From Spirochaetaceae bacterium (GTDB taxonomy: Bacteria > Spirochaetota > Spirochaetia > DSM-2461): a stretch of DNA of 64,000 bases. Where the stretch lies: the NCBI GenBank assembly GCA_051531975.1, contig JAOPTT010000002.1, positions 569,968 to 633,967 on the forward strand. The letters are read 5' to 3'. Shown here piece by piece: positions 6,306 to 23,099 of this stretch (its first letter is position 1; the number at the start of each line of letters is the position of its first letter). Under the pieces are notes generated by a model. It searched no databases. It was not told the origin of the DNA and was given only the letters and a program-made list of their open reading frames with translations. A program made the position numbers and the translations under genes.

Positions 6306-6326
6306 AAATTATGATAACACATAAAA

Positions 6327-7424
6327 TCATCTGAATTCACCATCAATAATACTGTAAATATCATTTTCTATGATAATGTCTCCATAATTATTAAATCGTA
6401 GATCTCTTTCCAACCCAAAGAAGAGTTCTTTCTCTAATATAGTATCTTTAACTGATTCAGGATTTTGCTTATCACTGTTCTCTAGACCACTAATTAGGAT
6501 CTGAACTGCATCATATGCTAGTGAACCAAGAAATGAAGGATCTATATTAAACATATTATGATACTCTGATTTAAAAGTTTTAAAGGACTTACTTACTTCT
6601 TTACGTTTTTTTTCTAGAACTATATATAAACCTTCAACAGCTTCCCCACCATTTATAATTAGATCATTTGACATAGCCCAAGTGCCACAGTAATAATCTA
6701 TGTCAGGGTTCAGTTTCCAAATAAGTTGAGCTAATGAGGCTGTATCTATAGCATTGGTTGCAAAAAGTACTCCATCAGCTCCAGACTGTACTATCTGCTC
6801 TGATATCTTTTCAAATGAAAGAGATGAGTCTTCACCAATAGTAAGTGCAACACCTACTGTTCCACCTAAACTACTAAATTCTTCAGAAAAATATTGATAA
6901 AGAGTTTCCGTATAACTTTTATTTCCCATATCATATACCACTGCAATATTTTTTTTACCCTGGGAGCTAGCCATTTTTGCAAGAGAATTTGCTTGCCCTC
7001 TATTAGTTGGGACACCTCTTAGGAAGTTATCATCTCTATCGCTTAAATAGGTTGTACTCATTGATGGTGAAATCATTAATACATCTTTATCTTTAATAGT
7101 TTCCAAGGCTGTCTCTGCCAGACTGCTCATTAATGGACCTATAATAAAATGAACATCATCTGCTAATAATTCATTAATAACTGCTTCGGCTTTTTTAGGG
7201 TCATTTGCATCATCTTTAATTATCAGTTCAACATCTTTACCGTTTAAACCTCCACTTGAATTTAATTGTTCAATTGCAAGTTCTACAGCATTTCTAGCAT
7301 CAATACCAAGCTCAGATCTACCACCAGTTAAGGTTCCCACATAACCAACCTTCACAGGTTTGGACCCATTACAGGATAAAAAAGTTAAAAGAACTAAAGT
7401 GAATATAATAATATAATTTTTCAT
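6327..7424 (-). CDS. LivJ/LivK-type (branched-chain amino acid family) substrate-binding lipoprotein, with no adjacent transporter
   Basis: Lipobox FLSC; N-terminal VKVGYVGTLTG; LNSSGGLNGKDVELIIKDD; AYDAV motif. Confidence 0.9.
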   Translation of the reverse strand: MKNYIIIFTLVLLTFLSCNGSKPVKVGYVGTLTGGRSELGIDARNAVELAIEQLNSSGGLNGKDVELIIKDDANDPKKAEAVINELLADDVHFIIGPLMSSLAETALETIKDKDVLMISPSMSTTYLSDRDDNFLRGVPTNRGQANSLAKMASSQGKKNIAVVYDMGNKSYTETLYQYFSEEFSSLGGTVGVALTIGEDSSLSFEKISEQIVQSGADGVLFATNAIDTASLAQLIWKLNPDIDYYCGTWAMSNDLIINGGEAVEGLYIVLEKKRKEVSKSFKTFKSEYHNMFNIDPSFLGSLAYDAVQILISGLENSDKQNPESVKDTILEKELFFGLERDLRFNNYGDIIIENDIYSIIDGEFR

Positions 7425-7459
7425 AAAATGCTCCTTAAATTAAAGCATAGTTCTACTAG

Positions 7460-7505
7460 TCATACAGTGCAAATTAAAGTCGCTAATTTAATTTGCATTG
7501 TATGA
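7460..7505 (-). terminator. Long hairpin ending the first MalT-like module transcript
   Basis: TCATACAGTGCAAATTAAA / TTTAATTTGCATTGTATGA, 19-bp arms with one mismatch, just past the stop at 7511. Confidence 0.65.
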
Positions 7506-7510
7506 TATTA

Positions 7511-7936
7511 TTAATTATTTGAAGTTTTATCATTTTCTATTTTTGGCCAGTTCCATGCAAAATAAATAATCAACAAAGCAAGAATAAGCTCCACGACGCC
7601 ATAAAAAATGTAATAGGCCCATGTCTCTCCTATCATATTTCCTATATTAACCAACGCGTATAAAGCTCCAAAAATAATGTTCAACAATCTATTGATATTT
7701 GATTTTAAGATAATTGATAACAATACCATTAACCCTGGAATCATCATTAATAAAGAAGCAATAAAAAGAGAAGTCTGAGTCACGGGGAAGGGTCCCATAA
7801 AACCATCTATAATTGATTCTAAATGTCCTGGTCGCATAAAGCTAAAAATATCACAATAAATATATAACAGCATCATAGATCCCCAGATTGCCGCTAACTG
7901 CACTTTAATATTAATTTTTGTATTCTCTCGTTTCAT
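7511..7936 (-). CDS. Four-TM membrane protein, DUF6326-like
   Basis: LAAIW...MLLYIYCDIF...PG motif, four hydrophobic segments, C-terminal AWNWPK; GAGG RBS before ATG 7936. Confidence 0.75.
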   Translation of the reverse strand: MKRENTKINIKVQLAAIWGSMMLLYIYCDIFSFMRPGHLESIIDGFMGPFPVTQTSLFIASLLMMIPGLMVLLSIILKSNINRLLNIIFGALYALVNIGNMIGETWAYYIFYGVVELILALLIIYFAWNWPKIENDKTSNN

Positions 7937-7962
7937 TTTACACCTCAATTGTTTTTAATTTT

Positions 7963-8598
7963 TCAAATTTTTGCTAAAGAGACTATTTGCCTCACTATCT
8001 CTGCAGGAACTTCCGGGAAAGACATTTTAATTAACCAGTTTGGAACGTTAACAACTGGAGAAATCAGAGCTGAAACTATAATCTCAACTAGTCCATCTTC
8101 CAATTCTTTGAACTCAAAACTTGTTTTATACCTTGTTAACCTTACTTCCTGACTAGTTTCATAATCATAGGAGATAGAACTTAATTTAATTATAGCTCTA
8201 CCTTCGCTAATATTCTCATCTATTTCCATTTTTAATACACAGTCTGTACTTGGAAAAGGCCATTCAGCATCGGAAGAATAATATACTACCCACTCTGTAT
8301 TAGAAACAATATCTAAAACTTTACTTTCATCTTCCTGCATTAACAATTTATGATTATTAACATCTTTTATAACACTAATACAATCTTCGAAGTCTACTTC
8401 TACTGTAGTCGTTATTACATATTCTATTAGTTGAATAACTTCTCCTTCACTGTTTTTCTCTTTACTAACTGAACTTTTTACAATAATTCCATCTTTTTTG
8501 GTTTTTTGGAGTTTCCAATTACCAGTTTCTCCTATTAAATTTCCATTTATTACAACAAAAACTATAAGAAGAAACACAATACGTATTTTACATTTCAT
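7963..8598 (-). CDS. Secreted START/SRPBCC-like (lipid-binding fold) protein
   Basis: Signal peptide; WKLQKTKKDGIIV, WPFPSTDCV and VPNWLI resemble START-domain motifs. Confidence 0.65.
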   Translation of the reverse strand: MKCKIRIVFLLIVFVVINGNLIGETGNWKLQKTKKDGIIVKSSVSKEKNSEGEVIQLIEYVITTTVEVDFEDCISVIKDVNNHKLLMQEDESKVLDIVSNTEWVVYYSSDAEWPFPSTDCVLKMEIDENISEGRAIIKLSSISYDYETSQEVRLTRYKTSFEFKELEDGLVEIIVSALISPVVNVPNWLIKMSFPEVPAEIVRQIVSLAKI

Positions 8599-8815
8599 TC
8601 CTTTCTACTCCTTCCTCATTAATTTTTAAAGAAATTAAAGTTATTCCTAAATCACGAATCTTAGTAAGAATCCCAAAAAGCGCCGCCTGATCAACCATGG
8701 GGGTTCTAAGTAACGAGATCCCTGATCTCTTTAACTCAATTTTTTGAACTATGTCATTAGCTATTCCCTGGGATAAATGACCTTTAATCGTGATTTCATA
8801 TACCTTTTCTTCCAC
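8588..8815 (-). CDS. Small conserved protein, possibly ACT/ferredoxin-like; paralogue of 16682..16900
   Basis: YEITIKGHL...DQAALFGILTKIRDLGITLISL; GTG start with AGGAG RBS. Confidence 0.8.
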   Translation of the reverse strand: MEEKVYEITIKGHLSQGIANDIVQKIELKRSGISLLRTPMVDQAALFGILTKIRDLGITLISLKINEEGVERNEM

Positions 8816-8892
8816 GTTATCTCCTTATCTAGCAATTGGTATTGCTGATGAAAGTTAAGTAGAGTTTGGAATATTGAAGATTAATCTCATAG

Positions 8893-8910
8893 GTACTAAA
8901 GTACTGTTTT
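8893..8910. promoter_or_regulatory. Putative operator palindrome, copy 1
   Basis: GTACT-AA-AGTAC followed by TGTTT; an equivalent motif lies at 16956. Confidence 0.5.
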
Positions 8911-8931
8911 ACATTTTTTATATAATTAACT

Positions 8932-11499
8932 TTAAATTAGTTTTAATTTTTTAGCCTTCGCAACCGCTTCTGTTCTTCTTTTAACTTGTAATTTGTCAAA
9001 GATCCGAGAGTTATGGCCTTTTATAGTACTAAGTGCTACACAGATTTGTTCACATATATCTTTGTTTGATAATCCTTCTGCTATTAATTTAAGTACTTCA
9101 ATTTCTCTTTCAGATAACTCATCTATAATAGTAATAGCTGATTCATCTTTTTCACCTAATATTTTCTTAATATATTCAGAATAGCGACCCTTACGTTGTA
9201 CTTCTAATAACATATCATTAAGTCTATTCTCTTGTAAAAAAACAGTTATATAAGATGATGGTTCACCTAGTAAAAGAGCTTTTTCTAAAAATGTAATTGC
9301 ATTAGTTTTATCATCCGTTAAATTTGAAATAATCGATAATAGAATGTAAGATTCCAGTTGCTCAAATTTCAAATCTTTTAGTAAATATATCTTAAGTAGT
9401 TCTTCTAAGGTCTGCTTAGATTCCTTATATTTTCCATAGGCCATCATAACTTTGACAGAGGATAAAGATTTCTCACTAGGAGCTAGCGAGTTCTTTGCTT
9501 CTTCAATTCTACCTTCTTTGATAAGTCCTGTAATTAATCCATTTGTAGCTTTAGCAGATAAAATATTAAAACCATTACTTTTAACCTGTTGCCTAATTGT
9601 TCTAAATTTTGAAATTGTTTCTTCATATAACCCATCTGCTTGTAAAATAAATAGATTTGTCATTTTACAAGTAATAATACTGTCTAATCTTCCAAGTATT
9701 AGAGCAAGTCCAGTACTTTTTTGGGCATATAATTTTGCTTTTGAAAAACTATTTTGATGATAATAAATTCTAGACAATCCGCTATAAACTTCACATGCCA
9801 TAGGTGGTGAAGTACCATTTAGCAGTGATATAATTCTCTTATATGTTCTCTTAGCTTCAACTAAATCACATTCAGCTTCCTGAAAAATTCCCAAGGACGT
9901 AGAAGCTAAAACATTAACTACGATATTACCTGTATCAGTACAGTTTTTTATAGTTCTTTCCATGTATAGTTGAGCAGTTTTTAAATCTCCAAGAAATTGA
10001 TGTGCTATACCCATAAACCAATTTACAGAACCTTTTGATGATAAGTTATCTTCACTGATTAATTCTAAAGCCTCTACAGCATATTTTATGATATTAGGGA
10101 CATCATGGTGACTTAGGGCTAAATACGCTCGAAGTGAGGCGATCTGCCCCCTTAGATCTTTATAAGTAACATCCTTAGGGTTGATATACTTTTCAGCAGT
10201 GCTCAGCTTTTCTTCTATACCATCGATCTTCCCACTTAGTGCTAATGCTGAAGCATAATGAACCAACAAGGCTGGCCTATTCTTAAAATCATCATTTGAT
10301 AATCTAGAAAACCAGGTTATAACTTGGGAAAGTCCTCCCCTATGGATTAAGTTAATACCACGGCTCTTTAATAACCTAAAAGAAAGATCTATATCCCCAG
10401 CTTTTGTAGCATGAATAAAAGCTTCAAGTTGTCGATCATGATCTTCATACCATCTGCTTGCCACTAAATGAAGTGATGCTGTGTTTTTAGTTTGCCGAGA
10501 TTTAATCAGATCAGCAAAAAGATGATGATACCGAAACCATTTTCTCTCTTCATCTAAGGGTATAATAAATAGATTTATCTGCTGTAGATACTCTAAGGTT
10601 TTTTGTCCTGATCCTTGTACACTATCTAGTAGGGCATCGCAAATAGAACCACAAAATCGATCTAATATGGAGGTTTTTAAAAGGAACTCCTGAATAGAAG
10701 GGTCTTGTTTAGTAAGAACTTCCTCAAGAAGATAATCCATAATATAAAAGTGATTCCCAGTGAAATGTTCAACAAAATGGTTTAAGTCTTTTTGAGTTTT
10801 CATAGTAATAGCTGTTAACTGTAGACCAGCTATCCAACCTTCTGTACGTATATCTAGAGCATCGATACTACTATCTGATAGCATCAGATTCATTTTTATC
10901 TTCAGAAACTCCGATGTTTCTTCTTTATTAAAACGTAGGTCATTTACCCGAATTTCAGTCAGTTCATCCCTTGCCCGTAAACGTGATAAAGGAAGATCTG
11001 GGTCCTCACGGGTTATTATTACTAGTTTCATGTTAGGAGGTAGATGTCCTAAAAAGAAATTGATTCCCTCAATTAACTCTTTTGACCGTATCAGGTGAAA
11101 ATCATCCAGAATTAACATTATATCTTCTTCTGATGCTGTAATTTCATTAATTAAGTTTGTAAATATAACATTTATATTAAAATCTCCAGGAGAGTGAATC
11201 ATTGTAAGAATGTTCTCCCCAATTGCACTGTTAACAGTTTGAAGAGTTGCAATCATGTAGGTTAAAAATTGTTTTGGATCATTATCAGACAGATCTAATG
11301 AGTACCAGCAGTAAAATCCTTTTATTTTTTGTAGCCACTCTGTAATAAGAGTTGTTTTACCAAATCCAGCAGAAGCAGACACTAAAATTAAATTATGTTG
11401 ATTGTTTTGTTCTAAAACATCCAATAATCGATGTCGTTTTATTAAATTAGATCCCGCCTTGGGAGAGTTCAGCTTTGTTTTTATTATTAAATCAGTCAT
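8932..11499 (-). CDS. MalT-like STAND ATPase / TPR / LuxR-HTH transcriptional regulator (copy 1)
   Basis: Walker A ASAGFGKT, LILDDFH, RTEGWIAGLQL, WFRYHHLF; C-terminal LSEREIEVL...GLSNKDI HTH. Confidence 0.93.
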   Translation of the reverse strand: MTDLIIKTKLNSPKAGSNLIKRHRLLDVLEQNNQHNLILVSASAGFGKTTLITEWLQKIKGFYCWYSLDLSDNDPKQFLTYMIATLQTVNSAIGENILTMIHSPGDFNINVIFTNLINEITASEEDIMLILDDFHLIRSKELIEGINFFLGHLPPNMKLVIITREDPDLPLSRLRARDELTEIRVNDLRFNKEETSEFLKIKMNLMLSDSSIDALDIRTEGWIAGLQLTAITMKTQKDLNHFVEHFTGNHFYIMDYLLEEVLTKQDPSIQEFLLKTSILDRFCGSICDALLDSVQGSGQKTLEYLQQINLFIIPLDEERKWFRYHHLFADLIKSRQTKNTASLHLVASRWYEDHDRQLEAFIHATKAGDIDLSFRLLKSRGINLIHRGGLSQVITWFSRLSNDDFKNRPALLVHYASALALSGKIDGIEEKLSTAEKYINPKDVTYKDLRGQIASLRAYLALSHHDVPNIIKYAVEALELISEDNLSSKGSVNWFMGIAHQFLGDLKTAQLYMERTIKNCTDTGNIVVNVLASTSLGIFQEAECDLVEAKRTYKRIISLLNGTSPPMACEVYSGLSRIYYHQNSFSKAKLYAQKSTGLALILGRLDSIITCKMTNLFILQADGLYEETISKFRTIRQQVKSNGFNILSAKATNGLITGLIKEGRIEEAKNSLAPSEKSLSSVKVMMAYGKYKESKQTLEELLKIYLLKDLKFEQLESYILLSIISNLTDDKTNAITFLEKALLLGEPSSYITVFLQENRLNDMLLEVQRKGRYSEYIKKILGEKDESAITIIDELSEREIEVLKLIAEGLSNKDICEQICVALSTIKGHNSRIFDKLQVKRRTEAVAKAKKLKLI

Positions 11500-11669
11500 C
11501 TATGGATATTATAACATGATTTTATATTTTGATGTTTAAGCTTTATAAAATATTATTATCTATAAGTAAATATAACAAAACCTTATTTTTGACACAATTT
11601 GAACACACTTTAGAAATATTTTTCTATTAGATTAGAAATAGATTACTTCTAAAGGAGCTTGATATCTAT

Positions 11670-12176
11670 ATGAAATACATTGCAGTGATTATATTTGGTG
11701 TTTTAAAGTTATTTTATATTAATGCAAATAACAGAACGTTGTTGTTTATGTTAACACCAATTAATAAAATAGTTTGTTTAGTGACAAATACACAGGCCAC
11801 AGTAGGTACAGAAGGTTACTTAAACAACAGTCTGAATATTATAATTAACAAATCCTGCTCAGGTTTTAATTTTTTCCTAGTAATTTTTGTAATGACCTTT
11901 GTTATGTCTTTTAAATATATTAATAGTACATTTCAGAAAACAGTTATAATTCCATGTCTTCTTATGACATCGTATTTAGTCACAATATTTGTTAACTCTT
12001 CAAGAATACTAATATCCCTGAAAACAAGTTATTTATTAACGAATCAAAATATAACACTACCCTGGCTTCATTATGTCGAAGGAATATTTATCTATCTATT
12101 TTTTCTAATTTTAATCTACACAATACTTGATAAAAGTATTACAAAAAGGATGTATCAAAATGAACAATTTAACTAA
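11670..12176 (+). CDS. xrtK: Exosortase K
   Basis: Cys-Arg-His triad in KSCSGFNFF, VNSSRI and LHYVEG; lies directly upstream of an MSEP-CTERM protein. Confidence 0.85.
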   Translation: MKYIAVIIFGVLKLFYINANNRTLLFMLTPINKIVCLVTNTQATVGTEGYLNNSLNIIINKSCSGFNFFLVIFVMTFVMSFKYINSTFQKTVIIPCLLMTSYLVTIFVNSSRILISLKTSYLLTNQNITLPWLHYVEGIFIYLFFLILIYTILDKSITKRMYQNEQFN

Positions 12177-14958
12177 ACCATACTGGATTTTTTTAATAAA
12201 TACCCTGCCCTTAATTATTCTCTTTATTATATTAAGAAGAGACTATGTTATTATTAAATCACTATTAACCCCTGATAATATAACCCTATGGAAAAGTTTT
12301 ACAACTGCATTAATTATCTATGGAATTTCTAATCTGGTATATGGGGTAATTCTTAAAATAAAAAATAGAGAGATAGATGTTATTTACACTTGTGTAACAC
12401 TGGTTATTTCTATATCAATAATCTACTTCTATATATATAACTTAGATGAAATAATTCCATTTAACATACCTCAGTGGATGGTCCCAGGTGAAAGGTTGGT
12501 TTATGTAGGTACATTTTTAATGCCTACAATACTATTTTTAATATTTATATTAGTATTTAAATTAACATCCGTTAATAAAAAGTTTAATGCATTTATATCC
12601 TTTGGAATTTCAGTTCTAATACCAGTATGTTGGTACATTATCTTAACTTTAGGGCTTCCTTCTATGTTATCACTACCCTCAAGATATAAGGATCATATTA
12701 ATGTTGTTCTCCTAATTACAGGGATAGTCCTATTTATATTCTTTCTATTTAGGGGTTGTTATATCCTTATACAAAGAAGATCTGAAAGACTTAGAAGAAG
12801 AGAAATATTCTGGAGAATCCCCTTAGCACTACTGTTACCAATTGGAGGCTTATTATTACATCTAAAATTTCCTATTTTTGGTAATTTCAACTCTAGATGG
12901 TTCTTTATTATTGGGTGTATTAATGGAATATTACTCTGCTTACCTAATTTAAATAATAAAACTTACAGACTATATCTATTTATTGGTCGGAGTATAACCT
13001 ATATGTTTAGTATTTATTTCTTAATTGTCTTTATCCCCTATTTACCAGTATCCGTAGTGGCTATTTTGGCATATGGGTCAGGATTATTAATGTTATGTCC
13101 TATAACACTATTTATGATTCATACCCAAACTTTGACCCATGATTGGAACTACTTAAAATCATATTTTAATAAAAAAATATTAGGTGTAATTATTTTATCA
13201 TCTGTTTTAATTATACCCTTTGGCTTATCAATCTCAATTTTAAGGGATAAAGGGACATTAAATAGTACCTTAAACTATCTTTATAGTCCTGATTATTCTA
13301 AGGAGTATAAAATCAATAGGAAATCTTTAAAAAATACCCTAGAAAACATAACATCATTACAAAAGAGTCGAATAGATTTTTTAGAGTTTAACGATAACTA
13401 CATACCATATTTATCTGGAATATATAACAAAATGGTATTTAATGGTTTAACAATATCAAAGAGTAAAATTAACGAAATAGAACAGATTTTTTTTGATAAA
13501 GATAAAAATTATAATACCCCAAACAGATTTGAAAATGAAAGTATTGAAATTACAGAGTTAGATGTAGAAAGCAGATACGATGTTGATCAGGATGTTTGGA
13601 TAAGTACTCTAAATATAAAACTAACCAATACTACCGATTTCTTTGGACAAGAGTATGTAACGACCCTAGATTTACCAAATGGTTGTTGGATTAGCGATTA
13701 TTATCTTTATGTTAATGGGATAAAAGAACATGGACTATTAGCAGAGAAAAAGTCAGCTATGTGGATTTATAATCAGATTAGGTACAGAGAGAGAAGAGAT
13801 CCAGGAATACTATATTATTTATCAGGAAACAAGGTAGAGTTTAAAGTCTTTCCATTTGCTGGTAATGAGGTAAGAGAAACAGGTATAGAGTTTATACACA
13901 AGGAGCCTTTCTCTTTAAAAATTGATTATAGAGAAATAATGTTAGGAGACTATAAAGATCAGATAAAGAGCAATCATGTTGGAAACAGTAATAATGATGT
14001 AATTTATATTTCTGAATCTGAGAAAAAGGAATTAGATATACTAGAGCGTAAACCATATTATCATTTTATTGTGGATACCTCACAAAACCAGGATATTAAT
14101 AAAAATAGTAATATTCAAATGATTAACTCCTTACTTAAAAGACAACATATCAAAAATATTGGAAGTAAAATATCTTTTACTAATAGCACAGTTATTACTT
14201 ACGATTTAAATAACAATCTAGAGGAACTATATGACAAACAAACATTTCATGGGGGATTTTATACTGACAGAGCAATAAAAAAAGCTCTATATGATAGTTA
14301 TGTAAATCTTTCTAAAACATATCCTATTATTATTATAGTTACTGATAATATCTATAATGGTGTATTAGTAAATAATTTCTCTGATCTTAAAATAACTTAT
14401 CCAGATAGTTCTTTATTTTATCTGCTAAAAGAAGATGGAGAGTTGGAAACTCACAACCTAGAATCTAATCCTTTAAAGGTAGTTCAAGAACAGCCTAAGT
14501 TTAATAATACAGTTTATGCCTACCCTAATAGATTAAATCCTGTGGTTTACCTTCCTAAACAAAATGGTGGTGAAGTTATATTGTTAAATAAAGAATTTAA
14601 ACTTAATAGAAAGCTAATTAAAGACAAAAACTGGGAAAGTGGACTTCTGCAACAAGGATTATGGATACAACATAAACTTTACCCGGATAAAGATGGTAAA
14701 AGATGGCAGCAGCAGATTAGATCAAGTTTTGAATCAAAAATAATGAGTCCAGTTACTTCATACCTAGTAGTTGAAAACGATGCACAAAGAGCTATGTTAA
14801 AAAGAAAACAGGAGCGTGTATTAAATGGTAAAGAATCTTTTGATATACAAGAAGAACCGGTACAGATGTCAGAACCAGGGTTTGTGATATTGGCATTAAT
14901 ATTACTTACAACATTATATCTAAAAAAAAGGAAAAACGAATTCGGAGTTAAAATTTAA
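12160..14958 (+). CDS. MSEP-CTERM sorting-domain protein (multi-TM N-terminus, VIT-like and vWA-like regions)
   Basis: C-terminal QMSEP + TM helix + KKRK; VIT-like AEKKSAMWIYNQI...RDPGIL...KVFPF; AAGGA RBS before ATG 12160. Confidence 0.88.
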   Translation: MNNLTKPYWIFLINTLPLIILFIILRRDYVIIKSLLTPDNITLWKSFTTALIIYGISNLVYGVILKIKNREIDVIYTCVTLVISISIIYFYIYNLDEIIPFNIPQWMVPGERLVYVGTFLMPTILFLIFILVFKLTSVNKKFNAFISFGISVLIPVCWYIILTLGLPSMLSLPSRYKDHINVVLLITGIVLFIFFLFRGCYILIQRRSERLRRREIFWRIPLALLLPIGGLLLHLKFPIFGNFNSRWFFIIGCINGILLCLPNLNNKTYRLYLFIGRSITYMFSIYFLIVFIPYLPVSVVAILAYGSGLLMLCPITLFMIHTQTLTHDWNYLKSYFNKKILGVIILSSVLIIPFGLSISILRDKGTLNSTLNYLYSPDYSKEYKINRKSLKNTLENITSLQKSRIDFLEFNDNYIPYLSGIYNKMVFNGLTISKSKINEIEQIFFDKDKNYNTPNRFENESIEITELDVESRYDVDQDVWISTLNIKLTNTTDFFGQEYVTTLDLPNGCWISDYYLYVNGIKEHGLLAEKKSAMWIYNQIRYRERRDPGILYYLSGNKVEFKVFPFAGNEVRETGIEFIHKEPFSLKIDYREIMLGDYKDQIKSNHVGNSNNDVIYISESEKKELDILERKPYYHFIVDTSQNQDINKNSNIQMINSLLKRQHIKNIGSKISFTNSTVITYDLNNNLEELYDKQTFHGGFYTDRAIKKALYDSYVNLSKTYPIIIIVTDNIYNGVLVNNFSDLKITYPDSSLFYLLKEDGELETHNLESNPLKVVQEQPKFNNTVYAYPNRLNPVVYLPKQNGGEVILLNKEFKLNRKLIKDKNWESGLLQQGLWIQHKLYPDKDGKRWQQQIRSSFESKIMSPVTSYLVVENDAQRAMLKRKQERVLNGKESFDIQEEPVQMSEPGFVILALILLTTLYLKKRKNEFGVKI

Positions 14959-14959
14959 A

Positions 14960-14994
14960 AATAATGGAAGTGCATGTTTTTCACTTCCATTATT
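14960..14994. terminator. Bidirectional terminator between convergent genes
   Basis: AATAATGGAAGTG / CACTTCCATTATT, perfect 13-bp inverted repeat. Confidence 0.75.
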
Positions 14995-15004
14995 CCTACA
15001 ATCT

Positions 15005-15718
15005 TTATTTACTGTTGTTTTTAATTTCCTGTTTTTTCCATAAATCTACATTTACACCTTTAATTGTTAACCATAATGCAAATGATAATTCTGCTGGGAT
15101 TGTAGATAAAACTATCATGGTATATATCGCGTCAAATTGTGGTAAAATGATATATCCAACACTATCAACAAAATATCCAAATGCAGCAAATAGGAATAAA
15201 AAACCTAAAACTTTTGGAAAAAATGTAGATTTTATTATCAACATACCAATTATTAGCAAGTGAAGACTAAAGAAAATACCCCAAATAAGGCTGGTTGTAG
15301 AGTAGGCATTTAGAAATAGAAGAACAAGAGCATTTATCTGATCTGGGTTAAAAACAGAGAGATAAGCCTGTCCACTTAACAACTCTAATACAATCAGTTT
15401 ATTTATAATATTCATTCCAATCATTGTAGTCATCGCCAATCTTGCAAAAGCTGCAATAGCTGACTTAGTTTTATTAACCGGTTTAAATATATTAAAGATC
15501 AGAACTGTTATTACTATTTCAAGCAGGAAGACAAATGAATCTGCTACTGCTCCCAAACGGAACATAGATTCAGAATCCAAAATACTCTTGGCTGTAGCAT
15601 TAGCATCTCCTGGAACTATTAGACTCTCAAATCCTCCAAAAAATCCAAATCCCCCACATACTGCTATTAGTAGATATATAACTCCTGCAATCTTAGCAGT
15701 TTTATTTATCGATTTCAT
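15005..15718 (-). CDS. DUF4386-family membrane protein
   Basis: AKIAGVIYL, VPGDANATA, FKPVNK, LWLTIKG motifs; about 6 TM segments. Confidence 0.8.
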   Translation of the reverse strand: MKSINKTAKIAGVIYLLIAVCGGFGFFGGFESLIVPGDANATAKSILDSESMFRLGAVADSFVFLLEIVITVLIFNIFKPVNKTKSAIAAFARLAMTTMIGMNIINKLIVLELLSGQAYLSVFNPDQINALVLLFLNAYSTTSLIWGIFFSLHLLIIGMLIIKSTFFPKVLGFLFLFAAFGYFVDSVGYIILPQFDAIYTMIVLSTIPAELSFALWLTIKGVNVDLWKKQEIKNNSK

Positions 15719-16685
15719 CTTTGTTCTCCTCTCTTATTGTTATTACTAAATTACCTTTTTTATGTCCCTGTTCAACATATCTATGAGCTTCTGGAATATC
15801 GGCTAAAACATATGTTCTATCGATAACACATTTTATCTGTCCTGATTCTATTAACCCTTTAAAGAAAACAAGATCCTCTGCAGTTTCCTTCATTACACCG
15901 GAAACTACACTTTTACTACTTGTTATTGTTGACCATATTCCTCTAAACGTTTGTGATACACTTGCTGCTGCTAAAACTAATGAACCTCGTTTATTTAAGG
16001 ATTTTATACTCCATCCATAGGAACTTTTACCAACTGTATCAAAAATAAGATCGTACTTCTCTGTTCTATCTGTTATGTCCTCTTTTGTATAATCAATAAC
16101 ATCATCAGCTCCAAGGGATCTAACTAAATCTATATTTGATGTACTACAAACCCCAGTTACATTGGCTCCAAAGTATTTTGCAAGTTGTATTGCGGCTGTT
16201 CCTAATGCTCCAGAGGCTCCATATATAAGGACATTTTGCCCCTGTTTAATATTACCTTTTCTTAGGTAATGCAACGCTGTATTTCCTCCAAATGGAATAG
16301 ATACTGCTTCTTCATAAGTCATATTTGTGGGTTTAATAGATACCACGGCATCTTCGGGTATACTTAAATACTCTGCATAAGCACCAAAAGCCATACCTGT
16401 TGTTCCGTATACTTTATCGCCTTGTTTGAATTTTGTTACATCTTTTCCAACAGATTCTATCTCACCTGCAAAAACAAAGCCGAGAATACTGTTTTTTGGT
16501 TTTGTGAGTCCAAAAAACAGTCTAATTACAAATGGATCCGCTTTTCTTAGATGCCAGTCCCCTGATGATACAGATGTTGCATAATTTTTAATTAATATCT
16601 CTTTATCATTTGGAATGGGCTTTTCTACTTCTTCTAATTTTAAAACATCAGGTGAGCCATACTCTTTAAATATAATTGCTTTCAC
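15702..16685 (-). CDS. NAD(P)-dependent medium-chain dehydrogenase/reductase (Qor-like, lacks Zn-binding Cys)
   Basis: YGSPDVL, GASGALG nucleotide-binding motif, LGADDVIDY, AHRYVEQGHKKG; GTG start overlaps the upstream stop. Confidence 0.9.
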   Translation of the reverse strand: MKAIIFKEYGSPDVLKLEEVEKPIPNDKEILIKNYATSVSSGDWHLRKADPFVIRLFFGLTKPKNSILGFVFAGEIESVGKDVTKFKQGDKVYGTTGMAFGAYAEYLSIPEDAVVSIKPTNMTYEEAVSIPFGGNTALHYLRKGNIKQGQNVLIYGASGALGTAAIQLAKYFGANVTGVCSTSNIDLVRSLGADDVIDYTKEDITDRTEKYDLIFDTVGKSSYGWSIKSLNKRGSLVLAAASVSQTFRGIWSTITSSKSVVSGVMKETAEDLVFFKGLIESGQIKCVIDRTYVLADIPEAHRYVEQGHKKGNLVITIREENKDEIDK

Positions 16686-16900
16686 TTTTTTACTCCTTGG
16701 TTTACTGAAATTAATGGTATTCCTAAATCCCGGACTCTTTTTAGCAGTCCATGTAAAGCTGCCTGGTCTTGGACCATTCCGGTAATTAAAGTATCTCCAT
16801 TATCTTCAAGGGAAATAGTCATGCTTCCAAACCAGTCTGACCATTTTATATCTAGGTGTCCCTCGACTCTGATCTGATAATTTTTTGCACTGTTTAACAT
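16682..16900 (-). CDS. Small conserved protein, possibly ACT/ferredoxin-like; paralogue of 8588..8815
   Basis: YQIRVEGHLDIKWSDWF...GDTLITG...DQAALHGLLKRVRDLGIPLISV. Confidence 0.85.
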   Translation of the reverse strand: MLNSAKNYQIRVEGHLDIKWSDWFGSMTISLEDNGDTLITGMVQDQAALHGLLKRVRDLGIPLISVNQGVKK

Positions 16901-16955
16901 CTCAATTTCTCCCTGTATACTAAAAATATACTCTAGGATGAGTTGCCTAACAAAG

Positions 16956-16983
16956 ACACTAAAGTGTTGTTTGGAGTGTTGTT
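16956..16983. promoter_or_regulatory. Putative operator palindrome, copy 2, with a direct repeat
   Basis: ACACT-AA-AGTGT followed by TGTTT; AGTGTTGTT repeated at 16963 and 16975. Confidence 0.5.
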
Positions 16984-17005
16984 CTGAATTTAAGACTCAG
17001 GATAT

Positions 17006-19606
17006 TTAAAGTTTAATGATATTTAGAGATCTGGCTTTTTGTATAGCCATTGTTCGATTTTTTACATTTAGTTTACTAAATATTTTTCTGTTATGACCTT
17101 TGACTGTATCCAGCGCAAGGAAGAGTTTTTCACAAATGTCATTATTGGACAGACCCTGGGCTATTAGCTCAAGTACTTCAATCTCCCTTAAACTTAATGG
17201 ATGAATTAAAGGTTGTTGCAACTCTTTATTACCACTATTTTTAAAAGCTGTTATAATCCTAAAAACATACTCAGATGATAATCCATCAGAAGATATATCT
17301 GAAATCATATTAAACATCGATTTACCTTCGTCTACAAAGATACGTATATAGTTACCATTTTCAGCTAATGTTATTAGTTCTTTAAAAACTCTATTTGTAT
17401 TATCTCTTTCTCCTAGACCATAAAAAGAGAATGCTTGTAGTATAAGAAGATTAAGTTTCTCAAAATACCATTTTTTACTATCAATATCTTTTAATAATCT
17501 GTTAATAATATCTAAAGCCTCATTATATTTACCCTGGTCGATTAACAGACGTATACTGCTAACTGGGATATCATACATTTTTATCTCTGTTTCAGCCTGT
17601 GGTATATCCCCTCTACTTATATGAAATAGAACTCTGGCCTCGACAATATCATTCATGCGGAATTGAAGATTATGACTTAAAACATACTGTTCAGCTTCAT
17701 TCAATAAACTTAAAGCTGCGACAGTATCCTTCTGCACAAGTTTTAATTTTGCCAGTAGTATAAGGCAGGATATTGGTGTGTCGATGTTTTCCAACTGCAG
17801 CGCCAGGGTTAGGCTCTCTTCCCCATATTTTTTAGCTTTTTCTAGGTCATTCCACCAGTAATAAATACGAGCCAAACCTAAAAAAGCCTCACAAGTTGAT
17901 GGCCATGGTGGAGTTCCAATATCTTTTATAATACTTTTAAAAACCTCTTCTGCCTGTAATAATCGGTTCTGAGATTCAAGAACCTGACCAAGACACGTTG
18001 ATGCCGCTATAGTAGACATGACATTTCCCGTAGATTTACTAATTGGAATTACACCTCTATATTCATCTATTGCTAACTCTCTCTGCCCAAGATTCTGATA
18101 TGCAAATCCTAATGTCCATTTAGCCAAGGGTCGTACAGCAAAATTATCAGGGTCTAGGTTTTCAAGTGCTATTTTTGATTGTGTAAGAATTTTTTTTGCA
18201 TCGTGTACTGGGATAGCAAGCATAGCTCGGATAGCTGCAATTTGTCCTACTAGATCTTTATACTTATCTATTTCATCTGTTTTTTTTATCATCTCTTCAG
18301 CTAAAGATAATTTTGAAACTATCCCACTTGCTTTTCCAAGAAATGTGAGAACTAGAGCATGAATGATAACCAAGGATGGTCTGTTTATAAATACGGATTC
18401 AGGTAAAGATTCCAACCAATTGTAGACTGGAACCATCTCTCCTCTAAAAATAAAAGGCATTCCATTACCTTCTATTAGTTTCTCAGCACGATCTATATCA
18501 TTCGCGGCAATAGCATGTTTAAAAGCTTCCATTTCTAGATCATTATTCTCAAACCAGACACTGGCCTTTTTATGTAATTCTGAAATATCAACAGATTCAC
18601 TTCTGTTAAGTCTTTGTCTTAGTAGGTCTGCAAAAAGATGGTGGTAACGAAACCATTTTCTCTGATCATCTAGAGGAATAATAAAGAGATTAGAATGTTC
18701 TATTAATTCAAGAGTTTCCTGACCTGAGACTTTATCATTCTGAAAAACTGAATCACATAGTGAACCACAAAATCTATCCATAATTGATGTCTGAAGCAGA
18801 AAGTTCTGAATATCTTCAGTTTGCTGCCTTAAAACTTCTTCAACTAGATAATCAAGGATGTACCGATGACTTCCAGAAAATGTATTAATGAACTCATGGG
18901 TATCATGATGTCCCTTTATAGAAATCGCTGCTAACTGTAATCCTGCAATCCAACCCTCTGTTCGGGATTCAAGTATGACTAAATCATCCTCTTTTAGATT
19001 AAGTTTCATCACTTTGTTTAAAAAAGAAGTAATTTCAGATAACGTGAAACGCAGATCTTTTGATCTAATTTCATTTAATTGTCCACGAACACGATACCGT
19101 GGCAGAGGAAGTACCGGGTCTTCCCGTGTGGCAATAACGAGGTGTAATTGTTCAGGAATATTTTCTATAAGAAAGTTTAGGATATTATCAACATCAGTGG
19201 AATCTACCAGATGATAGTCGTCTAAAATAAGGATTGTTTTATCTTCTAAAACAGTTAATTCATTGATTATAGAAATAAGTATTGATTCAGGTGATGGTGG
19301 CTGAGGTGACCTAAGCATTGCCATCATTCCAACTGCAAAGTCCGGGTATAACGTCTGGATTGCTGCAATTAAGTAGATAAGAAAATGTGAAACATCACTA
19401 TGCTCTTCATCTAATGAAATCCAAGCAACAGGTCTCTTACATACTGTTATCCACTGACTAAGTATTGTTGTTTTTCCAAAACCTGCCGAGGCTGATAAAA
19501 GTGTCAATTTTACATTTAAACCATCATTCAACTTATCTATTATATGTTTTCTTAGAATCACTTTTGACATTGTTTGAGGAATGTGTAATTTTGTAGATAA
19601 AATCAT
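17006..19606 (-). CDS. MalT-like STAND ATPase / TPR / LuxR-HTH transcriptional regulator (copy 2)
   Basis: ASAGFGKT, LILDDYH, RTEGWIAGLQL, WFRYHHLF; C-terminal LuxR HTH. Confidence 0.93.
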   Translation of the reverse strand: MILSTKLHIPQTMSKVILRKHIIDKLNDGLNVKLTLLSASAGFGKTTILSQWITVCKRPVAWISLDEEHSDVSHFLIYLIAAIQTLYPDFAVGMMAMLRSPQPPSPESILISIINELTVLEDKTILILDDYHLVDSTDVDNILNFLIENIPEQLHLVIATREDPVLPLPRYRVRGQLNEIRSKDLRFTLSEITSFLNKVMKLNLKEDDLVILESRTEGWIAGLQLAAISIKGHHDTHEFINTFSGSHRYILDYLVEEVLRQQTEDIQNFLLQTSIMDRFCGSLCDSVFQNDKVSGQETLELIEHSNLFIIPLDDQRKWFRYHHLFADLLRQRLNRSESVDISELHKKASVWFENNDLEMEAFKHAIAANDIDRAEKLIEGNGMPFIFRGEMVPVYNWLESLPESVFINRPSLVIIHALVLTFLGKASGIVSKLSLAEEMIKKTDEIDKYKDLVGQIAAIRAMLAIPVHDAKKILTQSKIALENLDPDNFAVRPLAKWTLGFAYQNLGQRELAIDEYRGVIPISKSTGNVMSTIAASTCLGQVLESQNRLLQAEEVFKSIIKDIGTPPWPSTCEAFLGLARIYYWWNDLEKAKKYGEESLTLALQLENIDTPISCLILLAKLKLVQKDTVAALSLLNEAEQYVLSHNLQFRMNDIVEARVLFHISRGDIPQAETEIKMYDIPVSSIRLLIDQGKYNEALDIINRLLKDIDSKKWYFEKLNLLILQAFSFYGLGERDNTNRVFKELITLAENGNYIRIFVDEGKSMFNMISDISSDGLSSEYVFRIITAFKNSGNKELQQPLIHPLSLREIEVLELIAQGLSNNDICEKLFLALDTVKGHNRKIFSKLNVKNRTMAIQKARSLNIIKL

Positions 19607-19721: not shown

Positions 19722-20063
19722 CTAATAAACTTCAATACTATCTATACCATTAAGATCTACTGTTGAAGTATATATACTATTGCAAGTGACTCTTATATCA
19801 ATTTTTCCACTTATCTCTTCTTTATATAACTGCTTTAAAGATTTAAATTGTTCTATATATAGTGCCTGTAATTCAATATCGGTTCCTGGGTCAAAGTTAA
19901 TTTTAACTATATCATTAACCTTAAACAGTTCTGGGGCTCTGTATATTTCCTTGTTTTTATTTAATAGATATTTTAAAAAACTTTGTCTCTTTAATAACTC
20001 TTTTGCCAATATTTTTTTGTTTATTATTAATAAACCACTTATTAACTCATAAAATATGTCCAT
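19722..20063 (-). CDS. Hypothetical protein, third gene of the AAA+/vWA operon
   Basis: 113-aa ORF with AGGAG RBS, 8 bp downstream of the vWA gene. Confidence 0.65.
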   Translation of the reverse strand: MDIFYELISGLLIINKKILAKELLKRQSFLKYLLNKNKEIYRAPELFKVNDIVKINFDPGTDIELQALYIEQFKSLKQLYKEEISGKIDIRVTCNSIYTSTVDLNGIDSIEVY

Positions 20064-20071
20064 ATTTTCTC

Positions 20072-21178: not shown

Positions 21179-21186
21179 TGTTACTC

Positions 21187-22257: not shown

Positions 22258-22406
22258 AAAAACCTCTAACTAGTAATAATTACTATTTAGATTAACATTA
22301 TATTAAAATATGATCTACTAAGTCTCGACAGCTAAATAAAACTTATATAGAGATATTAAATTATAAATACCCTATAATTTACTATATAAAATATATTGGG
22401 GGATTT

Positions 22407-23021
22407 ATGAAAAACTTAGATTCGATTAATAATACAGTAGACATGGTTAAACATAAAAAGATATTTAATAGTATATCCCCTATTTATAACCTCTTTTTTA
22501 ACAGTCAGGTTAAAAAATATAGCCAGATTTATATAGATTTAGAATCTGGACTGAATTTAACAAATAATTCTACAATTCTTGACATAGGTTGTGGGACTGG
22601 AGCATTCTCAAAAACTTTCTCATTGGCAGGTCACCTTTTAACAGGTGTAGATATATCAGAAAAGATGCTCAAATATGCTCAAAATCGGGGTATTAATGCT
22701 ATTTATGGTAACATTCTTGATGGTTTAGAATTTGAAAATAAAACATTTGATCATGTTATCTCAGCCTATGTAAGCCACGGCCTTGATAAAGAGAAAAGAG
22801 TAAAAATGTTATTAGAGGCGTCAAGATTATCCAAAGGAGTTGTAATTTTACACGATTATAGTCAAAACAGTAATGCTATGATAAAATTTGTAGAATATCT
22901 GGAAGATGGTGATTACTTTAATTTTATTAAAACTGGAATAAGCGATATGCAAGAGGTATTTTCAAATGTACAGATACTGCCTGTGAATAAATATAATAAT
23001 TGGTATATCTGTACACCTTAA
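22407..23021 (+). CDS. Class I SAM-dependent methyltransferase
   Basis: ILDIGCGTG, GVDISEKML, FDHV motifs. Confidence 0.9.
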   Translation: MKNLDSINNTVDMVKHKKIFNSISPIYNLFFNSQVKKYSQIYIDLESGLNLTNNSTILDIGCGTGAFSKTFSLAGHLLTGVDISEKMLKYAQNRGINAIYGNILDGLEFENKTFDHVISAYVSHGLDKEKRVKMLLEASRLSKGVVILHDYSQNSNAMIKFVEYLEDGDYFNFIKTGISDMQEVFSNVQILPVNKYNNWYICTP

Positions 23022-23099
23022 TCTGTTTTCATCAACTATTTAAAAGTATCTAACTATATATATACAAATAATGAACCTCTGATTATAATTGATTTAGAT

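Follow-up and report, generated by a model that had tools for sequence, protein, structure and literature searches.

A widespread cassette of a MalT-like ATPase regulator, a conserved small protein and interchangeable membrane and redox genes, present in three copies in a Spirochaetaceae genome

Background

The E. coli regulator MalT acts on arrays of repeated boxes and is inhibited by the proteins MalK, MalY and Aes, which are moonlighting enzymes or a transporter subunit. An excerpt of one article states that inhibitory proteins, MalY among them, sequester inactive MalT (PMC10427625), and an excerpt of another links MalT to a membrane transporter (PMC5760070). According to the latter excerpt, IniR of mycobacteria is a MalT-like multidomain ATPase with a sensor resembling MalT domain III and a LuxR-type HTH, and activates one adjacent operon, iniBAC, on envelope stress via trehalose (PMC5760070). 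Stand-alone RAM proteins are described, in the excerpt available, as binding small ligands and forming hetero-oligomers with the full-length regulator FL11 (PMC2995911).

In this study, we report a computational analysis of a cassette that occurs twice on the minus strand of a 64,000-nt stretch of DNA (the window), covering its architecture, the linkage of its regulator and small gene, the co-variation of operator and HTH, and the fold and fusions of the small protein. A literature search found no publication on the cassette and no paper on DUF4386 or on DUF6326. The cassette is undescribed and its small protein belongs to an unnamed family, in agreement with the original remark that no functional description of the arrangement was known.

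Results

Two modules with the same layout, as had been described from the sequence, were recovered at 7459-11499 and 14950-19606, with open reading frames, lengths and order all in agreement. Each consists of a MalT-like STAND/TPR/LuxR regulator gene, a spacer of 105-116 nt with a palindrome, a gene for a paralogous protein of 72-75 aa, two cargo genes and a hairpin; the genes, operators, promoter match and hairpins of these two modules all lie on the minus strand.

In module A, the 855-aa regulator (8932-11499) combines a MalT-like STAND ATPase with a TPR_MalT sensor (Pfam, 1e-31) and a LuxR/GerE HTH (GerE, 3e-15). The 116-nt spacer contains GTACTTTAGTAC (8893-8904) within operator A, AAAACA-GTACTTTAGTAC-C (8892-8910), a box type common to other phyla. 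Small protein A (8588-8815; 75 aa) has a GTG start with AAGGAG 5 nt upstream, and was the third-best match in the own-genome search. Cargo A1 (7963-8598) encodes a 211-aa START-like protein with a hydrophobic N-terminus, which had no Pfam match and was related by phmmer to START protein 3qsz (E 1.3e-5 over residues 59-203); cargo A2 (7511-7948) encodes a 145-aa DUF6326 membrane protein (PF19851, E 1.4e-16). The module ends in a terminator-like hairpin with a 20-bp stem (7459-7506; -20.1 kcal/mol, z -4.78, 0 of 200 shuffles as stable).

Module B begins with an 866-aa regulator of the same domain content (17006-19606; TPR_MalT 3e-53, GerE 4e-17), followed by a 105-nt spacer that contains ACACTTTAGTGT (16956-16967). 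Operator B (16956-16983), conserved in other phyla, is made up of the direct half-site AACAACAC and then the palindrome AAACAACAC-TTT-AGTGT, and it is abutted by a sigma-70-like promoter match, TTGTTA-17-TATATT (16925-16953), which agrees with the consensus at 9 of 12 positions and is a consensus match only. Small protein B (16682-16900; 72 aa), for which an AF2 model was obtained, precedes cargo B1 (15702-16685), a 327-aa MDR-family NAD(P)H quinone-oxidoreductase-like enzyme (Pfam ADH_N and ADH_zinc_N_2) that scores 153.6 bits against NCBIfam quinone_pig3, under the cut-off of 296.8. Cargo B2 (15005-15718) is a 237-aa DUF4386 membrane protein (PF14329, E 2e-49), modelled by AF2 as all-helical (pLDDT 94.2), for which Foldseek found no solved structural relative. 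A terminator-like hairpin with a U-run closes the module (14950-15005; -21.4 kcal/mol, z -5.87, 0 of 200 shuffles as stable).

Pfam, NCBIfam and PDB sequence matches support a regulator layout in which a NOD with Walker A/B motifs is followed by a TPR_MalT sensor and then a LuxR/GerE HTH. In the PDB search, regulator B matched the E. coli MalT chain 8bob over residues 1-418 (E 4.5e-56), and in a 45-row regulator alignment G42, G44, K45 and D130 were invariant, with D129 in at least 90% of rows. Regulators A and B are not MalT orthologues, because they score 420-422 bits against the NCBIfam MalT model, under its 537-bit cut-off, and no maltose genes were found among the 19 ORFs scanned in the window, as had been noted beforehand.

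The genome itself holds exactly three full-length MalT-like regulators and three small genes, each pair adjacent; the third module (L006) sits on another contig, so that all three regulators and all three small genes are paired. In L006 a DUF4386 gene precedes the small gene, and the expectation that the small gene always comes first in the regulon therefore does not hold. The sequence ACACTTTAGTGT occurs three times in the 5.46-Mb genome, once beside each MalT-like gene, with about 1.3 copies expected from base composition. This genome also encodes a NarL-type response regulator (recognition helix Q-T-V-K-N-H) whose gene adjoins a GTACTTTAGTAC box.

Neighbours of small-protein homologues were tabulated across genomes. 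Since the loci were gathered via the small protein, linkage was measured from that side, with regulators of the same kind lacking a small gene under-sampled, and on this measure 154 of the 173 distinct small-protein genes have a MalT-like regulator in the flank that was fetched (1.5-7 kb). The best 80 loci (from at least 591 relatives; 73 of these 80 loci have a regulator) contribute 83 of 92 genes to this count. Among Actinomycetota, the top loci add 24 of 28 and the divergent loci 40 of 46; genomes of the same phylum add 4 of 4 and the genome itself 3 of 3. For the remaining 19 genes no regulator was present in the fetched flank, four of them lying at most 700 nt from a contig end. When regulators were taken as the starting point in five further genomes, a small gene adjoined 12 of the 13 whose model coverage was full or nearly so. 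Record titles of the loci name at least seven major groups. The regulator and small gene stay together in tandem, reversed and divergent arrangements; cargo in most loci is an MDR reductase, DUF4386 or DUF6326, with other genes in the divergent Actinomycetota loci, and the pair is also kept with entirely different cargo (SfLAP with a PLP decarboxylase, MFS, DUF7144, GATase). The predicted fixed core of regulator and small protein with interchangeable cargo is thus upheld far outside the window.

Among 36 modules, identity of the small protein correlates with that of the regulator at a Spearman coefficient of 0.41, compared with 0.20 and 0.31 for cargo against regulator, -0.08 for small protein against DUF4386 and 0.28 for small protein against MDR. 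Nearest-regulator neighbours share the same first cargo type in only 10 of the 36, and mean pairwise identity is 0.63 for the small protein and 0.52 for the regulator. The cassette occurs in several copies per genome, and one copy was seen on a conjugative plasmid.

The palindrome shared by the two spacers is very probably a real operator: it is conserved across phyla and co-varies with the regulator recognition helix. The box is kept in loci titled Spirochaetia, Chloroflexota groups, Blastocatellia, Rubrobacteraceae, Phaeodactylibacter and Papillibacter; in its array form, the palindrome YAC-TWW-GTR comes after a direct repeat of AACAAYAC. In a set of 104 unique pairs of regulator and small gene, those with HTH type KG[HY]N have a class I box in 50 of 53 cases and class II in none, and those with HTH type RTHT have another box (TCACCAC-ATGT-GGTGA) in 17 of 31 cases and in no case class I by itself; among class I boxes, Asp or Asn at a recognition-helix residue accompanies CAC in 27 of 27, and Ser, Thr, Ile or Val accompanies TAC in 22 of 23, all counts being based on loose regular expressions, the first candidate site per spacer and related rows. 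The window modules follow the same rule: regulator A has Ser before T-I-K-G-H-N and a TAC box, and regulator B has Asp before T-V-K-G-H-N and a CAC box. In a 40-regulator tree from which the HTH columns were left out, these traits change 11 and 10 times, and each of the five independent pairs that lie on supported branches either agrees or shows no change, with none opposed (p about 0.06, phylogenetically corrected). As the operator bases co-vary with the recognition-helix residue, the regulator very probably binds the spacer operator.

The small protein, annotated by PGAP as a hypothetical protein, is 63-80% identical across phyla, and its family comprises 16,750 clusters at 50% identity (matches at E<=1e-3). 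It had no Pfam, NCBIfam or PDB-sequence match, and no ACT or RAM sequence profile matched it. The AF2 model of small protein B (pLDDT 89.6) has the order beta-alpha-beta-beta-alpha-beta, a predicted ferredoxin-like fold nearest to ACT/RAM domains. Its closest match was an Lrp/AsnC RAM domain (VIA Z 8.3, rmsd 2.9, 72 aligned), followed by another Lrp/AsnC RAM domain (Z 8.0), a homoserine-dehydrogenase ACT domain (7.8) and the stand-alone RAM protein STS042 (7.2), the fold match being borderline with Z about 8 and a best Foldseek E of 0.013. Chains with two small-protein stretches exist. Divergent members do not keep the His of the GHL motif, which leaves no residue to point to as a catalytic or ligand site. 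In many predicted proteins the small domain is N-terminally fused to DUF6326, DUF4386 or MDR; the partner is the cargo and not the regulator, a biased comparison because read-through can fuse only the downstream gene. In two Chloroflexota species-representative genomes, an ORF of 347-349 aa combining the small domain and DUF4386 directly follows the regulator.

Discussion

We propose that the module is a self-contained transcriptional switch in which the small protein is the partner of the regulator, an explanation that as a whole we rate at an even chance. On induction, the regulator, a MalT-type STAND ATPase, would multimerise and bind the array of half-sites that closely follows its own gene; in module B the -35-like hexamer directly adjoins these half-sites, and binding would activate the downstream operon. 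The output would be the cytoplasmic ferredoxin-like protein of about 70 residues in every case, together with variable cargo, mostly MDR, DUF4386 and DUF6326. The small protein would be a dedicated partner, a small ligand-binding or cargo-docking module, probably a dimer, that reports the state of ligand or cargo to the STAND protein in the manner of MalK, MalY and Aes on MalT; with the regulator controlling the small gene, the feedback loop would thereby be closed. We hold it highly likely that the regulator binds the predicted operator and controls the operon; that the small protein acts on the regulator is possible, with a chance slightly under even. We infer activation rather than repression, as well as the sign of the feedback, the contact between regulator and small protein, and the nature of the signal, for which our guess would be a hydrophobic or electrophilic xenobiotic or membrane stress. 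From the cargo types only, it is plausible that the cargo handles a hydrophobic compound.

The small protein may instead be an accessory of the cargo only, an ACT/RAM-like regulatory or docking subunit of MDR or DUF4386/DUF6326 that makes no contact with the regulator and adjoins it merely through membership of the regulated operon. ACT domains commonly regulate enzymes, translation of the small gene is coupled to that of the following gene in modules A and B alike (overlaps of 11 nt in A and 4 nt in B), and the N-terminal fusions to DUF6326, DUF4386 and MDR, found also in the two species-representative genomes, fit a cargo partner at least as well as a regulator partner. We nevertheless consider this rather unlikely, since the pair outlasts a complete change of cargo as well as small-then-regulator or divergent order, the identity of the small protein follows the regulator better than DUF4386 or MDR, and it would be unusual for one 70-aa domain to serve three cargo families that are not related to each other, other than as a generic adaptor.

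Less probable still is a reading in which the switch serves mainly to produce the small protein, for instance as a stress protein or as one that binds a small molecule, nucleic acid or other target, with the cargo a later addition. No other product of the regulon is constant, the conservation of the small protein exceeds that of the regulator, its family is very large, and some loci have no recognisable cargo after the small gene; against this, none of its features indicates a particular target, the same three cargo families recur across phyla, and its fusion to cargo speaks for the two acting together.

Defence systems commonly include STAND NTPases with TPR sensors, and the several cassette copies per genome, one plasmid-borne, would suit an Avs-like anti-phage or conflict system with the STAND protein as the sensor of an invader protein. 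We regard this as very improbable: a LuxR HTH forms the effector domain and its operator co-varies with it, PADLOC gave no match for the small protein or cargo and matched the regulators in the HTH region only, and the cargo consists of redox and membrane proteins instead of nucleases or other typical effectors. That the modules, on the same strand within 12 kb, are merely a recent local duplication is already refuted by the age of the paralogues (regulators 40% identical over 868 columns; small proteins 39%, E 1e-12), their different cargo, the third copy on another contig and the recurrence of the cassette in many phyla.

The switch proposed here concerns a widespread cassette, comprising a MalT-like ATPase regulator, its own operator, a conserved protein of about 70 residues and swappable membrane and redox genes. 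Other large ATPases with a LuxR HTH likewise lie beside the genes they control; in the excerpts consulted, however, they are pathway-specific regulators that activate polyketide and other clusters, with no mention of a conserved partner of about 70 aa or of DUF4386/DUF6326/MDR cargo. IniR shares with the cassette regulators a MalT-like ATPase, a MalT-type sensor and a LuxR-type HTH, but the NCBIfam IniR model matches them weakly and in the HTH region only (E 1e-3 to 2e-4), the cargo is not alike, and the excerpt names no small partner protein for IniR (PMC5760070).

Stand-alone RAM proteins (DM1, STS042) and ACT domains are similar in size to the small protein and have the fold predicted for it. 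It has no sequence-profile relation to these domains, the Z range is one that a common arrangement can reach, and instead of an Lrp protein its partner would be a STAND ATPase. The class I core, ACTWWAGT flanked by YAC/GTR, probably resembles the DosR and NarL consensus sites of GerE-family operators, but the cassette HTH is carried on a STAND ATPase and the operator has extra direct half-sites at about 12-nt spacing. With MalT, the cassette regulators share the order of NOD ATPase, arm, TPR-like sensor and LuxR HTH. The MalT box is asymmetric, whereas the cassette operator is a palindrome with direct AACAAYAC half-sites, and the putative partner in the cassette is a dedicated protein of about 70 aa, whose gene is part of the regulated operon and which is conserved together with the regulator in different phyla.

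Two modules with a common layout

ORF listing, together with Pfam and NCBIfam scans, confirmed the minus-strand layout that had been seen to occur twice in the window. In module A, regulator A (855 aa; 8932-11499, minus strand) gave weak P-loop ATPase matches, TPR_MalT at E 1e-31 and a GerE/LuxR HTH at E 3e-15. It is followed, after a spacer of 116 nt, by small ORF A (75 aa; 8588-8815, minus strand), which has a GTG start with AAGGAG ahead, and then by the cargo, namely the gene for a START-like protein of 211 aa with a hydrophobic N-terminus (7963-8598, minus strand) and a gene assigned to DUF6326 by Pfam (7511-7948, minus strand). A hairpin with a 20-bp stem (7459-7506, minus strand) closes the module. 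Module B comprises regulator B (866 aa; 17006-19606, minus strand), of the same architecture, a spacer of 105 nt, small ORF B (72 aa; 16682-16900, minus strand), an MDR/quinone-reductase-like gene (15702-16685, minus strand), a DUF4386 gene (15005-15718, minus strand) and, at its end, a hairpin with a U-run. The regulators share 40% identity and the small proteins 39% (E 1e-12). Each small ORF runs into the gene that follows it, over 11 nt in module A and 4 nt in module B, and is thus translationally coupled to the cargo. The duplicated module is a real feature of this DNA, and chance is far from explaining it.

The genome as a whole holds exactly three convincing small-protein matches and, by tblastn, exactly three full-length MalT-like genes. 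The third pair (locus L006, contig C6) has the order regulator, box, DUF4386, small gene; the small gene had been taken to be the first of the regulon, and this order shows that it is not always so.

The DNA around the modules was also annotated. Between modules A and B, on the opposite strand (11670-14958, plus strand), a gene for exosortase K (TIGR04287, E 1e-32) is followed by one for an MSEP-CTERM sorting-domain protein (TIGR04286, 853 bits). In the region 216-7424, which lies directly downstream of module A, the genes for a hemerythrin-domain protein and a periplasmic binding protein have a hybrid histidine kinase on either side, one with PAS domains and a receiver and the other with dCache, PAS and receiver domains. 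Upstream of regulator B (19722-25124) are a 113-aa ORF without a family, a DUF2201 metallopeptidase/VWA-like protein and an AAA_5 ATPase, with a methyltransferase and a TerB_N/TerB_C protein on the other strand. The G+C content is 0.41 at 58001-62000 and about 0.30 in the rest of the window.

Regulators of the MalT type

The activation of NOD/NLR-like ATPases has its bacterial model in the STAND regulators of the MalT type. To our knowledge, their signals and partners have been described mainly for MalT, IniR and some antibiotic-cluster activators.

Judged by their sequences, the two window regulators belong to the STAND proteins of the MalT type. In regulator B, residues 1-418 match MalT chain 8bob (E 4.5e-56). 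In the NOD, which gives weak Pfam matches to AAA_16/ATPase_2, the Walker motif residues G42, G44, K45 and D130 are invariant among 45 aligned regulators, and D129 is present in at least 90% of the rows. The MalT-like TPR (SUPR) sensor, PF17874, was matched above its gathering score in both regulators (E 1e-31 in A, 3e-53 in B); the C-terminal LuxR/GerE HTH, PF00196, was matched at E 3e-15 and 4e-17. That they should be MalT orthologues is ruled out by their scores of 419.6 and 421.7 bits with the MalT equivalog model NF003420, below the curated cut-off of 537 bits, and by the absence of mal genes; as had been noted, none was found among the 19 neighbouring ORFs scanned. An Avs-like anti-phage STAND function received no defence assignment from PADLOC, in which the regulators matched only CARF3 models in the HTH region, and the small protein and cargo had no match at all. 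One report (PMC5760070) describes IniR as a MalT-like ATPase/LuxR activator of one single envelope-stress operon.

Distribution of the small protein and its linkage to the regulator

More than 7,293 relatives of the small protein were present among 90% clusters; where a source gives a name, it is hypothetical protein. Its profile gave 16,750 matches at E<=1e-3 among 1.84 billion 50% representatives, 9,620 of them at E<=1e-10; the top two, of 7432 and 2683 aa, contain 34-41 short stretches in repetition and appear to be artefacts of these repeats. The family has no Pfam, NCBIfam or PDB-sequence match, and in the protein atlas it falls in unnamed, Chloroflexota-rich clusters only. A species-level scan with one genome per species gave at least 591 relatives, from which the best 80 loci were kept. 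Judged by their record titles, Chloroflexota predominate among these 80, the other groups being Blastocatellia and other Acidobacteriota, Rubrobacteraceae, Trueperaceae, Spirochaetia/Spirochaetota, Papillibacter, a Bacillales MAG and Phaeodactylibacter.

Neighbours of the small-protein relatives were tabulated as the original prediction had proposed, locus L134 being left out of the small-protein set and of the pair and arrangement analyses. A tblastn search in which the proteins of the window served as queries found a MalT-like gene in 73 of the best 80 loci, nearly always ending 100-300 nt ahead of the small gene on the same strand. These loci carry 92 distinct small genes; the regulator C-terminus lay at most 700 nt upstream of 69 and further upstream of 13, one had another arrangement, no regulator was seen for six, and three were at a contig edge. 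For the 28 small genes of the top Actinomycetota loci (1.5-kb flanks) the corresponding counts were 18, 2, 4, 4 and 0. A divergent Actinomycetota set was composed of 40 chosen places spanning E 2e-21 to 5e-8, room on the contig being required; its 46 small genes were distributed as 7, 10, 23, 5 and 1, so that a regulator was nearby for 40 of the 46 distinct small genes, or in 36 of 40 by locus. The other carriers of the organism's own phylum had a regulator upstream in four of four cases. Overall, 154 of 173 small genes had a MalT-like regulator inside the fetched flank; proximity within 5 kb by chance was estimated at below 3%, given at most 11 regulator-type genes per 5-Mb genome. Counted from the regulator side in five other carrier genomes, 12 of the 13 regulators that covered the model fully or nearly so had a small gene beside them, and two further regulator matches with a different C-terminal half had no small gene alongside.

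Carriers made up 5 of 401 sampled genomes in the organism's own phylum, 58 of 401 in the phylum of genome G401 (taken as Actinomycetota) and 60 of 301 in that of genome G404 (taken as Chloroflexota). In Chloroflexia genomes, two to four cassettes stand head to tail over ~14-25 kb (L015, L026, L067 and contig C27 of G404), with two or three in L015, L026 and L067, and up to 10 small-protein matches were seen in one genome of the Actinomycetota sample.

One cassette (L180) is carried by plasmid pREC3 of Acaryochloris marina MBIC10699 (285760-296319), which is typed as conjugative (MOBF, MPF_T). The PGAP order is LuxR C-terminal-related regulator, VOC family protein, AraC regulator (opposite strand), DUF6326, alcohol dehydrogenase, hypothetical protein (opposite strand), the small protein (again 'hypothetical protein') and a further pair of DUF6326 genes; extra genes at this locus encode VOC-family, methyltransferase and adenylate-kinase proteins. 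A copy on a conjugative plasmid gives a route for the patchy distribution of the cassette.

Interchangeable cargo

The same-strand ORFs downstream of 138 small genes were clustered. The main clusters were those foreseen, namely MDR dehydrogenases (70 proteins, 48 loci), DUF4386 (67 in 45 loci, with an extra cluster of 9) and DUF6326 (21), along with two unnamed families of ~150 aa, one of them with weak sub-threshold membrane-protein family matches. Smaller sets comprised nitroreductase, DUF333, DUF3795, ICMT-like, RibD_C, PQQ_2 and ABC proteins. In the divergent Actinomycetota loci the cargo is different, consisting of SfLAP with a PLP decarboxylase, MFS, DUF7144 and GATase proteins. The proposed arrangement, a constant pair of genes to which exchangeable cargo is added, has good support, as has the operator described below.

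The Pfam scores of the cargo were above the gathering threshold for DUF4386 (PF14329; 168.8 bits), DUF6326 (PF19851; 61.5 bits) and MDR (83.5, 62.7 and 50 bits). The START-like protein of module A had no Pfam match and no relative in the 80 loci; over residues 59-203 it matched 3qsz, a STAR-related lipid transfer protein, by phmmer (E 1.3e-5). A Foldseek search of the PDB with the DUF4386 model gave no match (best E 0.13, TM at most 0.33). Neither DUF4386 nor DUF6326 was found in the full-text literature, and broader literature searches gave no description of the cassette, supplements and subscription journals lying outside the scope of both. The presence of quinone-type reductases, a nitroreductase, VOC proteins, small membrane proteins and a START-like protein suggests that the signal may be a hydrophobic or electrophilic compound.

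Operator motifs and the recognition helix

The shared palindrome had been noted in the two window spacers, and an operator motif proved common to regulator-to-small spacers across phyla. The class I motif consists of the half-site AACAAYAC and, ~12 nt on, the palindrome AACAAYAC-TWW-GTRYC. By eye, class I spacers often have an extra AYAC downstream and a TATGYT-like hexamer ~25 nt past the palindrome. In module B the promoter-like match TTGTTA-17-TATATT abuts the palindrome, whose centre is near -43 by counting. The sequence ACACTTTAGTGT has three copies in the 5.46-Mb genome, each adjoining one of the MalT-like regulators: after regulator B, after regulator C (that of L006) and upstream of regulator C, in the region from which transcription diverges. 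The last of these precedes ORFs of 217, 210 and 173 aa (L006:13397-15476, contig C6) without a Pfam family at E<=0.001, which may be further targets of regulator C. No comparable autoregulation box was found upstream of the genes for regulators A and B, where only 3-mismatch or half-site matches occur.

The sequence GTACTTTAGTAC has two copies in the genome, one in module A and one behind the gene for a NarL-type response regulator, before an ABC sugar-binding operon. At this second place (L007:6805-10114, minus strand, contig C14), a HisKA_3 kinase and the NarL-type response regulator (recognition helix Q-T-V-K-N-H) are followed by AACAGTACT...GTACTTTAGTAC; the box is of the module A type and stands ahead of the ABC sugar-binding-protein operon. 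This box type may thus be a general GerE-family site in the organism.

Class II spacers contain TCACCAC-ATGT-GGTGA and another TCACCAC downstream, often behind a GC-rich terminator-like hairpin of the regulator gene, and were seen at L016, L086, L043, L060, L034, L064, L057, L026 and L048. The recognition helix of their regulators reads N-T-x-R-T-H-T. In 104 unique regulator-to-small pairs, with boxes called by regular expression, the class I box was present in 50 of the 53 pairs with the HTH T-V/I-K-G-H/Y-N and the class II box in none; the class II box was present in 17 of 31 pairs with T-x-R-T-H-T, and the class I box alone in none. Neither expression fitted the other 14 pairs with RTHT, or 8 of the 20 in which the HTH is of another type.

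Within class I, the second half-site base can be predicted from the residue that precedes T-V-K-G-H-N: CAC...GTG accompanies Asp or Asn (27/27), and TAC...GTA accompanies Ser, Thr, Ile or Val (22/23). The window regulators conform, regulator A having Ser and GTAC and regulator B, like regulator C, Asp and ACAC. A quick maximum-likelihood tree of 40 class I regulators was built on the 358 aa that precede the HTH, the columns of the HTH itself being excluded; ten class I pairs out of 50 did not enter it (eight with in-frame stops in the 420-aa stretch, two too short). At least 11 changes of residue class and at least 10 of the base are placed on this tree. Five independent pairs on supported branches were concordant or unchanged and none was opposed (sign test p ~0.06, the limit for five). 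The co-variation of residue and base, with the tree-based pairs, is strong computational evidence that the regulator HTH would bind the class I site.

Predicted fold and fusions of the small protein

The AlphaFold2 model of the small protein (55-row alignment; pLDDT 89.6) is beta-alpha-beta-beta-alpha-beta, with elements E6-12, H18-24, E28-31, E37-43, H46-59 and E63-68, a predicted ferredoxin-like fold of ~70 residues as in ACT/RAM domains. Foldseek gave no match at E<=1e-3, ACT domains being on top (E 0.013). Borderline matches in exhaustive VIA were Lrp/AsnC RAM domains, at Z 8.3 (rmsd 2.9, 72 aligned) and 8.0, followed by a homoserine-dehydrogenase ACT domain (Z 7.8) and stand-alone RAM or similar small proteins (Z 7.2-7.7), values below 8 being such as a merely common arrangement can produce. 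Searches for ACT/RAM sequence profiles matched neither a Pfam family, at a threshold as loose as E<=10, nor an NCBIfam model, and the best hit of the small-protein profile among PDB sequences had E 0.25. Stand-alone RAM proteins are described in one source (PMC2995911) as binding small ligands and co-assembling with a full-length regulator.

The conserved positions are mostly hydrophobic, with a Gly in the beta1-alpha1 loop and D-Q starting helix 2. A catalytic role for the GHL histidine was discarded, the residue being replaced in divergent members, as was a RiPP or leader peptide, the small protein being a confident globular domain in the model. Three single chains (P0245, P0248 and P0300) carry two matched small-protein stretches, a hint that the small protein may work as a dimeric unit.

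The small domain was also found fused, as the N-terminal part, to DUF6326 (~217-256 aa), DUF4386 (~276-362 aa) and MDR enzymes (~395-574 aa). In two species-representative genomes, an 886-aa regulator is followed by one ORF of 347-349 aa that joins the small domain and DUF4386. Among the 120 of 223 matches listed, none joined the domain to the regulator, an asymmetry that is biased, since read-through joins the small gene to the downstream gene only.

The small protein between regulator and cargo

In 36 modules with a full-length regulator, the pairwise identity of the small protein correlated with that of the regulator at a Spearman coefficient of 0.41; the values for cargo and regulator were 0.20 (DUF4386) and 0.31 (MDR), and those for cargo and small protein -0.08 and 0.28, all from non-independent pairs. 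The nearest regulator neighbour had the same first cargo type in 10 of 36 cases. The small protein thus tracks the regulator more closely than the cargo does, an indication which suggests that the two travel together and that the cargo is exchanged. That the pair is kept with wholly different cargo, also in reversed or divergent arrangements, likewise favours this. When regulator B (866 aa; alignment of 45 rows) and small protein B (55 rows) were co-folded, without controls, the score was 0.02 against a mark of 0.32, which counts neither for nor against a contact.

The cargo fusions point to the small domain cooperating physically with the cargo, as far as gene structure can indicate, and a role as a bridge from regulator to cargo would fit both kinds of evidence. 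That the small protein may feed back on the regulator is plausible and has precedent; MalT is described as being held inactive by partner proteins (PMC10427625). A broader proposal, which we consider unlikely, is that the ~70-residue domain is a universal 'handle' by which unrelated outputs, membrane proteins as well as reductases, would signal to a STAND transcription factor whether they are occupied or what state they are in. The domain, free or fused to cargo, would then keep the regulator inactive, for instance at the membrane, as long as the cargo has not met its substrate.

Were this handle to exist, the 'transporter as sensor' principle of MalK and MalT would be generalised to a portable, horizontally spreading two-gene sensing core, present in about one-fifth of the sampled Chloroflexota genomes and one-seventh of those of the G401 phylum (taken as Actinomycetota). 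A very large unnamed family is associated almost one-to-one with one branch of MalT-type regulators, in a testable system with a readable operator, one base of which is predicted by one recognition-helix residue. The partner protein of such a two-gene core could explain how switches of this type sense their signals, the DNA-recognition code could be of use in designing orthogonal regulators, and the cassette offers a first functional handle for DUF4386 and DUF6326.
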